From the NCBI GenBank assembly GCA_964613035.1, contig CAZTFQ010000002.1:21901-85900 (forward strand): 64,000 nt of DNA. The letters run 5' to 3'. The notes beneath the pieces are model-generated. The model saw nothing but the letters and a program-made list of their open reading frames with translations. It was not told the origin of the DNA and made no database searches. How positions within the stretch are numbered: position 1 is the first letter of the stretch; each line of letters starts with the position of its first letter. Below are positions 28,424-29,950 of this stretch, one piece after another. The position numbers and the translations under genes were made by a program. This DNA comes from an uncultured Christensenellaceae bacterium. Its GTDB lineage: Bacteria > Bacillota > Clostridia > Christensenellales > DTU072.

Positions 28424-29950
28424 TTATATCTCCATATCGTTTTCGATAACGCCTTTCATGAAGGTAATTTCTTGATTGCAAATGTGATTTTTGGACGATA
28501 TCTCGGCGACGTAGGTACCCGGGGCGTCGATATCCACGACACAACTCCAGTTGCGGATACATTTTTCGCAAGAATAATGCTTGCCGTCCAGCTTGAGATA
28601 CATTCTGTCGTAATCTCCGTCGACGTAGAATCTCAATACGGGGTTTTCTCCGGGTTGCAGAGCTATCAACGTGCTCTCGAACTCGACCGTCGGCGCGTCC
28701 TGAGCGGAGGGGGCTTGAGGTTTCTCTACGGGCTCGGGTTGTACCGCGGGCTGTTCGGGAATAATCTCGGGCACGTCGTCTTCGACGGGTTTTTCGTTAA
28801 GTGAGCGGTCCTTGCCCGCATATTCTTCGAATCGCGCGATTTCCTTTTTGTCGACCATCGGTTTGACCTTTTTTATCGCGTCTACGATATGCTTTTGGGT
28901 GACTTTCATCTCGACGTTCGTGCGGATAAAGCTATTGAGGGGGACGTCCTTGGCGCGATCGCAAATTTCGTCTATATCCGCGCCGGAATAGCCCTCCGTG
29001 AGCTTGGCGATGACGTCGAAGTCCACGTCGTCTTCTATCGGGATGTCCGACAATTGTTTTTTAAGCAGATATTTTCTAGCCGCCTTATCGGGGAGAGGAA
29101 CGTAGATTTTTTCGCTGAATCTTCCCGATCTGACCGCCGCGCCGTCTACGTCCCAGGGGCGATTGGTCGCGCCGAGAAGGAGCAGATTGGGGTTACGTCC
29201 GACGAAGCCGTCTATCTGTTGTAAAAACTCGTTGACGCGCTTATCGTTGTGGGGGTCGTTGCCGCGTTGACCGAAGAGGCTGTCCATCTCGTCGATGAAG
29301 ATGATTGCCAGCTTATCTTTTCTGGCGGTCTCGAAGAGGCTGCTGATGTTCTTTTCCGATTCTCCGACCCATTTACTGACGATATCGGAGCCTTTTATCG
29401 CATAAAAGGTCGCTCCGACCTCGTTGGCGATGGCTTTGGCTATCATCGTTTTCCCTGTGCCGGGAGGACCGTACAGGAGCACGCCGCCGCCGCTTTTTTT
29501 GCCGTAGCGGGCGTATTTCTCGGGATATTTGACGGGATTAATCATCCTCATCCTAATGGACTGCTTGACGTCCTCTAGTCCCGCAACGTCGCTGAATTTG
29601 ATGTCGGGGATGGTTGCGGCTTGCCATTGTTTGGCGTCCTCATCCGACGATGCCGCGTTTTTCTGCCCCGCGGACGGAGCCTTCTTCGGCGTAGTCTGAC
29701 CCGCCGTGCCGCCGATGACGGCGCCGCCTTCCAGATTCTCGGCGATCTCGATGAGCCTTTTCGCTCTCTCGAAGCGAGCCTTTTTCAACTCGCCGGTATC
29801 TTCTTTGGCAAGTTTTATGAGAGCCTGAGCCGCGCGGAGGAGGTTTTCTTTGGCACCGGCGACGTCTCCCCTCTGCTGGGCTTTTTTGGCGTTGTCGTAA
29901 TACATAAGAAACGTATCGTATATGAACGTGCTCTTATCTTCATCCCTCAT
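28424..29950 (-). CDS. Vps4/katanin/spastin-clade AAA+ ATPase with an N-terminal MIT-like domain and a novel Cys-containing C-terminal domain
   Basis: The MIT-like helical N-terminus is [33 protein letters not shown]. The AAA core is [18 protein letters not shown]...[38 protein letters not shown], near-identical in pattern to Vps4. The C-terminal approximately 110 aa contain a CxxC...C...C arrangement. Confidence 0.85.
   Translation of the reverse strand: [508 protein letters not shown]

Follow-up and report, generated by a model that had tools for sequence, protein, structure and literature searches.

Systems that pair Vps4 with ESCRT-III have been described as confined to archaea and eukaryotes (PMC10936438, 2024), and a more recent account states that a Vps4-like ATPase "appears absent in bacteria" (PMC7619361, 2025). 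Bacterial MIT-Vps4-like genes have been noted, with snf7 displaced there, as has PspA encoded with a double-AAA protein in Clostridium (both PMC11237479), and the association of SPFH proteins with ESCRT-III or PspA has precedents in B. subtilis YdjI and in archaeal systems (PMC10936438). Among BREX systems, BrxL is specific to types 1 and 4, the types whose PglZ has a C-terminal beta-sandwich, type-2 PglZ carrying a winged helix-turn-helix domain instead and type-3 PglZ having no C-terminal domain; the BrxL of type 4 is a short form made of DNA-binding domains at the N-terminus plus an MCM-family AAA+ domain (PMC12839542). Here we analyse a 508-residue AAA ATPase and its operon, encoded on a stretch of 64,000 nucleotides (the window) of contig CAZTFQ010000002.1 from an uncultured Christensenellaceae bacterium (GCA_964613035.1). 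Our analysis suggests that the ATPase is a bacterial Vps4 analogue that would remodel co-encoded ESCRT-III-like membrane polymers, probably in a conflict system, and that it would be tethered to BrxL through a C-terminal DUF7862 domain; to this reading we assign a probability of roughly 55%. The novelty is in our judgement real: an operon that combines ESCRT-III-like, SPFH and TIR genes encodes a bacterial ATPase of the Vps4-like type, with a BREX-derived DUF7862 module tied to BrxL. Full-text literature searches found no description of this module, and PMC12839542 (2026) makes no mention of Vps4, Snf7, ESCRT or SPFH.

The comparison with these described systems can be made point by point. With Vps4 and CdvC the ATPase shares an MIT-like N-domain, a flexible linker, a single classical AAA domain with a KW pore loop-1, the PW after GATN and a terminal helix, also found in p97 D2, as well as a gene position adjoining an ESCRT-III-like gene and a place with their clade in our trees; like archaeal CdvC, it is without the beta-domain. 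It differs from them in being bacterial, in a second region of homology (SRH) of the form RxGRF without the two-residue deletion and RRR, in its score against the CdvC model (217 bits, cut-off 650), in the extra DUF7862 domain and tail, and in its partners, which are SPFH, TIR, BrxL and protease proteins rather than CdvA or ESCRT-I/II. The bacterial MIT+Vps4-like ATPases of Ravi et al. 2024 (PMC11237479; Opitutus ACB74714.1) likewise have membrane-proximal partners with TPR repeats but, going by their description, differ from the present family, which keeps a Snf7-like gene, belongs to a Clostridia lineage and is accompanied by SPFH, TIR and BrxL. The PglZ-BrxL pair of BREX-4 shows the same C-terminal DUF7862 with a tail ending in Phi-[D/G]-Phi-COOH and the same short BrxL gene immediately next to it, whereas in our locus no PglZ, BrxC or BrxP lies among the scanned neighbours and the domain sits on a Vps4-like ATPase, not on a phosphatase/nuclease. 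As in the PspA-YdjG/H/I system of B. subtilis and in archaeal ESCRT loci (PMC10936438), the genes include one for a zinc-ribbon SPFH/Band-7 protein together with one for a protein of the ESCRT-III superfamily; the differences are that the helical partner matches Snf7/CHMP, not PspA, and that a dedicated Vps4-like ATPase is present. Finally, an operon on a Thermococcus peptonophilus plasmid (NZ_CP014751) also pairs a Snf7-like protein with an MIT-like AAA protein, but that operon is archaeal, has a Ser/Thr kinase and a PP2C phosphatase as partners, shows the meiotic-type SRH deletion and is without DUF7862, SPFH and TIR.

The ATPase is read from an ATG start (the coordinates of this and the other features of the window are collected in Table 1), and the catalytic motifs of its AAA domain are intact, including Walker A and B, the KW pore loop and the Arg in the SRH. 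Pfam finds AAA at residues 157-286 (E 2e-41) and AAA_lid_3 at 308-349 (1e-10), while Vps4_C at 346-377 remains sub-threshold (19.8 bits, gathering score 21.3); many homologues have a precomputed match to this family (PF09336). The closest named relative, from a metagenome-assembled genome (MAG) of Christensenellales, is 70% identical. An earlier reading of the bare sequence (the original prediction) had proposed a linker of about 70 residues between the MIT and AAA domains, which turns out to span about 40, and an extension of about 110 residues containing CNQE in place of the Vps4 C-terminal helix. The helix is in fact retained at residues 366-379, where it can be lined up with the last helix of Vps4, CdvC, katanin, spastin and p97-D2; the extension exists and follows it, amounting to about 128 residues in all when Pro/Glu linker, domain and tail are counted together. 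The family contains short forms of about 370-385 residues, which stop once the terminal helix is complete, and long forms, which carry DUF7862. There are also proteins of about 700 residues (L005, 2451-4532, and proteins P0006, P0010 and P0013) in which a second, divergent AAA cassette with the pore loop HQGVGNSEK replaces DUF7862.

The N-terminal domain had been called MIT-like, and this holds at the level of the family. Its three-helix pattern is conserved among 32 homologues, and when a profile of the family was compared with all PDB sequences, nine of the 15 matches were MIT domains, among them those of chitin synthase (2mpk, E 2e-3), Sulfolobus CdvC (2w2u, 0.035) and VPS4A/B (0.1-0.4). 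The Pfam MIT model matches nine of the 32 family members, with a best E of 1.7e-7. By these profile comparisons the N-domain of the family is MIT-like.

The placement of the AAA domain requires more care. The original prediction had described the AAA core as almost Vps4-identical; the signature stretch that it had in mind is present at residues 188-225, but the wording was too strong, since 24 of these 38 residues are identical to yeast Vps4 and since the SKWVGESEK pore loop also occurs in an archaeal Cdc48 D2 (L045), so that the motif is not exclusive to Vps4. Over 270 trimmed columns of the whole domain, identity is 40.0% to yeast Vps4, 38% to Cdc48 D2 and 33% to FtsH, and it stays within 33-40% for every classical AAA reference. 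The best PDB matches are to p97/Cdc48 (D2), and the NCBIfam models score 241 bits for CDC48, 216.9 for CdvC, 212 for PAN and 208 for FtsH, all far under their cut-offs (803 bits for Cdc48 TIGR01243, 650 for the CdvC equivalog). Membership in the Cdc48, CdvC or IetA families is rejected on such scores, which lie far under the curated cut-offs.

Because raw similarity cannot separate the AAA families, we built neighbour-joining (NJ) trees with nine reference sequences and five archaeal Cdc48 proteins. Each reference used for Vps4, spastin, katanin and PAN was checked against PDB and proved to match an entry there exactly or nearly so, the two CdvC sequences were transcribed from PDB alignments and p97 D1/D2 likewise from PDB matches, FtsH came from E. 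coli K-12 and the archaeal Cdc48 proteins from fetched loci. In the main tree (273 columns, 500 bootstraps) the bacterial family and Vps4/CdvC/katanin/spastin form a group with 96.8% support that excludes Cdc48 D1/D2, PAN and FtsH. This grouping stays at 93-96% over three distance corrections, three column sets and one run without the tandem-AAA members. The family itself, tandem members included, is monophyletic at 99-100%, the main tree giving 100%. It never groups with PAN or FtsH, and it is sister to the sampled Vps4, CdvC, katanin and spastin sequences, not nested among them. Thus, of the two outcomes that the original prediction had set against each other, a Vps4/katanin/spastin and an FtsH/ClpX-type affinity, the trees favour the former at 93-97% across all 10 settings, and an FtsH/ClpX-type AAA is rejected by the phylogeny. 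The description that fits the family best is that of a separate bacterial branch, placed towards Vps4 in the tree of classical AAA proteins; it is not a CdvC orthologue.

Could the protein nevertheless be a Cdc48-derived, single-domain AAA chaperone? One would then suppose that a TPR-like helical N-domain was gained independently, that the likeness to Vps4 is convergent, and that the operon serves envelope-stress housekeeping in the style of PspA/YdjI, with no Vps4-type cycle and no defence role. Such an origin would account for the PDB and NCBIfam scores, which are highest for Cdc48/p97 D2, for the SKWVGESEK motif of the archaeal Cdc48 D2, and for the SRH, in which VRSGRF aligns with the RPGRF of Cdc48, PAN and FtsH and the meiotic-clade signature (the two-residue deletion and RRR) is missing. 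Moreover, the SPFH protein with its zinc ribbon recalls the ydjGHI-pspA operon of B. subtilis (PMC10936438, PMC11237479), and in one locus (L085) the module lies beside an ftsZ cluster. The trees speak differently, since the family joins Cdc48-D2 in 0% of NJ replicates as against 93-97% with the meiotic clade, and the 'PW' after GATN is common to the ATPase, Vps4, CdvC and katanin. The architecture is that of a single cassette with an MIT-like N-terminus, without the tandem D1-D2/double-psi barrel arrangement, and the MIT matches are specific. The helical partner matches Snf7/CHMP, not PspA, and TIR, BrxL and protease partners, together with positions near recombinases and restriction-modification genes, are unlike housekeeping stress operons. 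We therefore consider a Cdc48-derived housekeeping chaperone quite unlikely, and return to the Vps4-type reading and to the partner on which it depends.

This partner is the 194-residue protein encoded directly upstream of the ATPase. A first sign of its kinship with ESCRT-III is that Pfam Snf7 picks it up at E 8e-5, below the threshold of that model. When its family was aligned by hhalign with six eukaryotic ESCRT-III proteins, verified against PDB, the match had a probability of 75% and P 2.5e-5 over 152 colinear columns, while reversed references gave P 0.025 over 9 columns and PspA gave no match. The helices predicted for the protein, at residues 7-49, 52-96, 101-150, 160-170 and 177-193, fit the alpha1-alpha6 layout in a model of low confidence, and its N-terminus, MGLFKTKQEK, resembles the MGLFGKTQEK of CHMP3 (the CHMP3 sequence was verified). 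The C-terminus forms a conserved amphipathic helix with MIM1-like spacing, and a strict MIM1 pattern is found in 31 of 120 family members compared with 17 of 2400 shuffles. We hold the ESCRT-III homology of the 194-residue protein, as judged from these alignments and patterns, with moderate confidence.

A phage or plasmid origin of the Snf7-like protein was considered and rejected, since there was no match in 50,697 phage records and the sole match in the plasmid database was a gene on the Thermococcus peptonophilus plasmid (28% identity, E 4e-5). That archaeal protein also matches Pfam Snf7 weakly, and two genes away from it lies an MIT-like AAA protein with a significant Vps4_C match, which falls in the Vps4/meiotic group; this pairing supports the ESCRT-III assignment independently. 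The plasmid operon (L089, NZ_CP014751, 12037-24471) comprises, in this order, a Ser/Thr kinase, this MIT-like AAA protein, a PP2C phosphatase and the Snf7-like protein, annotated only as hypothetical or ATP-binding, and it looks like a phosphorylation-controlled ESCRT-like module.

How widely the pairing of Snf7-like and ATPase genes recurs was assessed in a scan with one genome per GTDB species, which gave 43 bacterial loci, all of the related loci being MAG contigs. They come from Christensenellaceae, other Clostridia, Anaeroplasmataceae, 'Coproplasma', 'Caccovivens' and a Bacilli MAG. In about 40 loci, as judged by tblastn, and in seven further contigs the genes for SPFH with zinc ribbon, cc117, cc200, the Snf7-like protein and the ATPase follow in this order. 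The protein with a zinc ribbon, TPR and in many cases a TIR domain usually adjoins the module on one side or the other. In the window, eight minus-strand genes are tightly packed, with gaps of at most 18 nucleotides or overlaps. The original prediction had missed this conserved operon, with its Snf7-like gene, SPFH protein, TIR protein and BrxL ATPase.

In about 11 of the loci (L001-L006, L009, L016, L082, L083 and L086) a gene for a protease with a zinc ribbon and a Trypsin_2 domain follows directly 3' of the ATPase. This arrangement raises the possibility that the ATPase is the unfoldase of an AAA-protease pair similar to IetA/IetS, feeding the trypsin-like protease, in which case the MIT-like domain would be a helical adaptor and the small helical proteins substrates or regulators. 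The PADLOC IetA models do match the AAA domain (4e-39), but they cover the generic AAA core only, and the NCBIfam IteA model gives 113.7 bits against a cut-off of 510. Moreover, the protease is missing from most loci, including the window, as against a Snf7-like gene adjacent in 42 of 43, the AAA domain groups with Vps4/meiotic proteins and not with proteasomal or FtsH-type ATPases, and the ATPase is without an HbYX-type motif. We regard a protease-feeding unfoldase as distinctly improbable and keep the Snf7-like protein as the more plausible client of the ATPase.

We now turn to the C-terminal domain, for which the original prediction had proposed an unprecedented, Cys-containing module, possibly a beta-sandwich or Zn-binding. 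AlphaFold2 predicts with confidence a sandwich of eight strands (pLDDT 87.5), followed by a tail that is disordered (pLDDT <50), and Foldseek on this model agrees, without turning up a close relative; the fold is immunoglobulin-like (Ig-like). Zinc binding is rejected on this fold and on the residues: in an alignment of 36 C-termini a single Cys (C461), one Phe and one Gly are invariant, there is no conserved set of three or four Cys/His residues, and a zinc site is unsupported because the CxxC of the window copy is not conserved. Cysteine content is thus a local feature rather than a trait of the domain. Nor is the domain unprecedented. When 1.84 billion representative proteins were searched exhaustively with the profile, only 71 matches came back, in five groups: the ATPase family, gene fragments on short contigs, weak and partial similarities to surface repeats of the Big_13 type, proteins of 740-770 residues with the domain at their extreme C-terminus, and a cc200 fusion together with one unrelated small protein. 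The 740-770-residue proteins, recovered at E 5e-7 to 8e-4, are PglZ of BREX-4 (NCBIfam NF033445, 369-470 bits, cut-off 140). Pfam DUF7862 (PF25262) matches 20 of the 36 ATPase C-termini with a best E of 1.5e-7, the window's own C-domain taken alone giving no match, and when hhalign compares the ATPase C-domain profile with a BREX-4 PglZ C-terminus, the match has a probability of 98.5% and E 1.8e-15 and extends over 89 columns that include the tail. The tails follow the pattern KG-x-x-E-[NDE]-D-[LMF]-[GDE]-[ILV]-COOH in the ATPase family, and those of BREX-4 PglZ (...KGISSNFDI, ...KENNLDI, ...EQQFDI) resemble them; the position equivalent to C461 is not Cys in PglZ. At the level of profiles, the C-domain is DUF7862, homologous to the C-terminus of BREX-4 PglZ.

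The BREX connection extends to the next gene. The BrxL start codon lies 1 nt past the ATPase stop codon, and the window BrxL is recognised by Pfam BrxL_ATPase (8e-114) and BrxL_N (2e-27), by TIGR02688 (434 bits, cut-off 329) and by PADLOC (5e-197); it is 54% identical over its full length to a BrxL of 478 residues encoded directly 3' of a BREX-4 PglZ gene. An intact DUF7862 with tail goes together with BrxL in all 16 informative loci (the window, L001, L002, L004, L006, L007, L037, L039, L082-L088 and L091; L003 was left out since its contig ends too soon), and all of the roughly 30 short-form loci are without BrxL. L035, the one long form that has no BrxL, carries a degenerate domain from which the invariant Cys and the tail are gone. 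In a further variant (L091 8001-9086, L092 1571-2656), found in at least four contigs from different samples, there is neither a Snf7-like nor an ATPase gene, and cc200 continues in frame into a Pro-rich linker, DUF7862 and the tail, with BrxL and the trypsin protease kept. In the AAA tree the long forms are scattered among the short ones, and the coupling of DUF7862 and BrxL is therefore not a single event. From these patterns we infer that DUF7862 and its tail may constitute a portable BrxL-docking module. A BREX system in the window is itself rejected: among 10 neighbouring proteins, PADLOC and Pfam find, of PglZ, BrxC/PglY, BrxP and BrxL, only BrxL, and PglZ is also missing from the related loci.

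It has been hypothesised that the fast-evolving, Ig-like C-terminal domain of PglZ recognises the invader (PMC12839542), and Ig-like folds are generic binders. By analogy, DUF7862 on the ATPase could be a sensor of a ligand or invader, such as a phage protein or a nucleic-acid backbone, rather than a dock for BrxL, and the link to BrxL could reflect one recombination that moved the 3' end of pglZ and brxL, the two having arrived as one DNA segment. The interspersion of long and short forms points instead to more than one joint gain or loss of the domain and BrxL. Both host proteins share the conserved extreme C-terminal tail, L035 has lost tail and BrxL jointly, and L091, which is without the ATPase, still keeps DUF7862 and BrxL. 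A sensor that owes its BrxL neighbour to a single transfer is in our view unlikely, though still a contender, and we proceed with the docking interpretation.

How might such a machine work? We propose that the ATPase assembles as a hexamer whose MIT domain would bind the conserved amphipathic helix at the end of the Snf7-like subunit, and perhaps also the IYG...LLxMFE motif of cc200. Subunits would then be threaded through the KW pore, so that the ESCRT-III-like polymer, which may form on the membrane next to an SPFH scaffold, is disassembled or turned over. This action would parallel that of Vps4/CdvC on ESCRT-III/CdvB. In the long form, the DUF7862 sandwich and the ...E-N-D-M-E-I-COOH tail would serve as a dock for the ring of BrxL, an MCM-like, DNA-binding AAA+ protein translated together with the ATPase, and through this docking the membrane machine would be joined to a DNA motor of BREX origin. 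Because the partners include TIR, frequently a trypsin-like protease, and BrxL, and because the genomic positions are variable, we favour a predicted role in conflict or damage response (anti-phage or envelope damage) over housekeeping. A stronger version, namely that gut Clostridia possess a genuine ESCRT-III/Vps4-type machine of Snf7-like, MIT-AAA and SPFH proteins within an immune or damage-response system that has a transmembrane TIR receptor, the long form being coupled to the BrxL DNA motor via the BREX-PglZ-derived DUF7862 and tail, strikes us as possible but rather doubtful.

A number of our results weigh against the Vps4-type reading. For the Snf7-like protein, Pfam Snf7 is sub-threshold (E 8e-5, 22.8 bits, gathering threshold 27.3) and matches four of 32 members; the AlphaFold2 model is of low confidence (pLDDT 57.6), and the Foldseek matches of this model are all non-significant, with E of 0.3 or more, although the highest probability falls to CHMP2A-CHMP3, and CdvB2 and CdvB also appear. 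A profile search of PDB with the family returned no ESCRT-III protein, the homology being graded as moderate, and only 26-43% of the members show the strict MIM1 pattern, the window copy not being one of them. The window's own ATPase gives no Pfam MIT match, and because it lies below this threshold the MIT assignment holds at the level of the family. To these points belong the flat identities to all AAA references, the NCBIfam score of Cdc48 slightly above that of CdvC, the missing SRH signature, and trees made by NJ only with few references. In addition, cc200 and cc117 show no similarity to ESCRT-III, PspA or each other by hhalign and Pfam, the counts for DUF7862 and BrxL lack phylogenetic independence, and the module as a whole corresponds to no PADLOC model.

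The remaining genes of the operon and its surroundings are listed in Table 1. The gene for the transmembrane (TM) and LRR protein overlaps that of the TIR-like protein by 4 nt, and its product is probably equivalent to the TM/extracellular half of the TIR proteins of about 1250 residues in other loci; of eight TIR-like homologues tested in the module, six reach Pfam TIR_2 above threshold, and most are of this length with TM segments. The window copy of cc117 is without the N-terminal TM helix found in most orthologues, and all three small proteins of the window begin with a similar hydrophobic-basic motif (MGLFKTK, MCFFKNK and MCFFQSK). Three different module proteins carry a zinc ribbon, the SPFH protein at its C-terminus and the TIR protein and the trypsin-like protease (L001, 11478-12236) at their N-termini, and these ribbons may be a shared adaptor. 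As to genomic position, the L085 module (1-5511) is directly downstream of the division cluster mraZ-rsmH-ftsQ-...-ftsZ, that of L086 lies beside serine recombinases and that of L088 beside a type III restriction-modification methylase.

None of the other genes that lie close to the module in the window (cytolysin-like, FtsK-like, LRR, trypsin/Flg_new) is conserved beside it elsewhere. Among them are an 877-residue protein with a thiol-activated (cholesterol-dependent) cytolysin-like domain, encoded on the opposite strand, an FtsK/HerA-type ATPase that may be another defence-island gene, and a surface protein downstream of BrxL. A hairpin after the surface-protein gene is the strongest terminator-like one in the region, and this gene may therefore mark the end of the transcription unit.

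Table 1. Features of the ATPase, its operon and the nearby genes, in window coordinates.
Feature	Position	Strand	Remarks
ATPase open reading frame, 508 aa	28424..29950	-	
MIT-like three-helix domain, residues 1-73	29732..29950	-	Family-level profile and Pfam MIT matches
Low-complexity linker, residues 74-112, about 40 aa	29615..29731	-	Length and composition vary among homologues
Single classical AAA cassette, residues 113-380	28811..29614	-	Walker A GPPGTGKT, pore loop SKWVGESEK, Walker B, lid, terminal helix
Pro/Glu-rich linker, residues 381-423, about 43 aa	28682..28810	-	Low-complexity, variable; in every long-form homologue
DUF7862 Ig-like (IPT/TIG-like) beta-sandwich, residues 424-502, about 80 aa	28445..28681	-	
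Acidic/hydrophobic C-terminal tail IENDMEI, 6 aa	28427..28444	-	Conserved in about 70 long-form homologues
Short BREX-4-type BrxL (BrxL_N and MCM-like AAA+, no Lon domain)	26983..28422	-	Pfam/TIGRFAM/PADLOC
Snf7/ESCRT-III-like protein, 194 aa	29966..30550	-	Directly upstream of the ATPase; adjacent in 42/43 bacterial loci
cc200, 200-aa helical protein	30562..31164	-	Invariant IYG...LLxMFE; 41/43 loci
cc117, small helical protein	31167..31520	-	Detected in about 30 loci
SPFH/Band-7 protein with C-terminal zinc ribbon (YdjI-like)	31533..32468	-	Pfam Band_7_1 1e-22, Zn_Ribbon_1 6e-8; 39/43 loci
Zinc-ribbon, TPR and TIR-like protein, 443 aa	32487..33818	-	Window copy: TPR matches only
Protein with acidic N-terminus, 3 TM segments and BspA-type LRR	33815..35923	-	Pfam LRR_5 3e-21; hydrophobic segments 252-371
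Cytolysin-like protein, 877 aa	21120..23753	+	Pfam E 5.7e-33
Terminator-like hairpin	23820..23845		
Surface protein, 1017 aa	23869..26922	-	Signal/TM segment, weak Trypsin_2, Flg_new repeats
FtsK/HerA-type ATPase, 1178 aa	37550..41086	-	Partial PADLOC matches SspH, mad8

What does the finding mean more generally? A Snf7-like gene kept beside an MIT-AAA ATPase, in a module common in gut Clostridia, makes the origin and the bacterial use of Vps4-type polymer remodelling directly testable. The co-variation of DUF7862 and BrxL provides a concrete hypothesis for BREX as well, concerning the role of the C-terminal beta-sandwich of PglZ and the recruitment of BrxL. Finally, the presence of TIR, a protease and BrxL among the partners hints at a membrane-linked conflict system that has not been listed so far and that would link membrane remodelling to defence.

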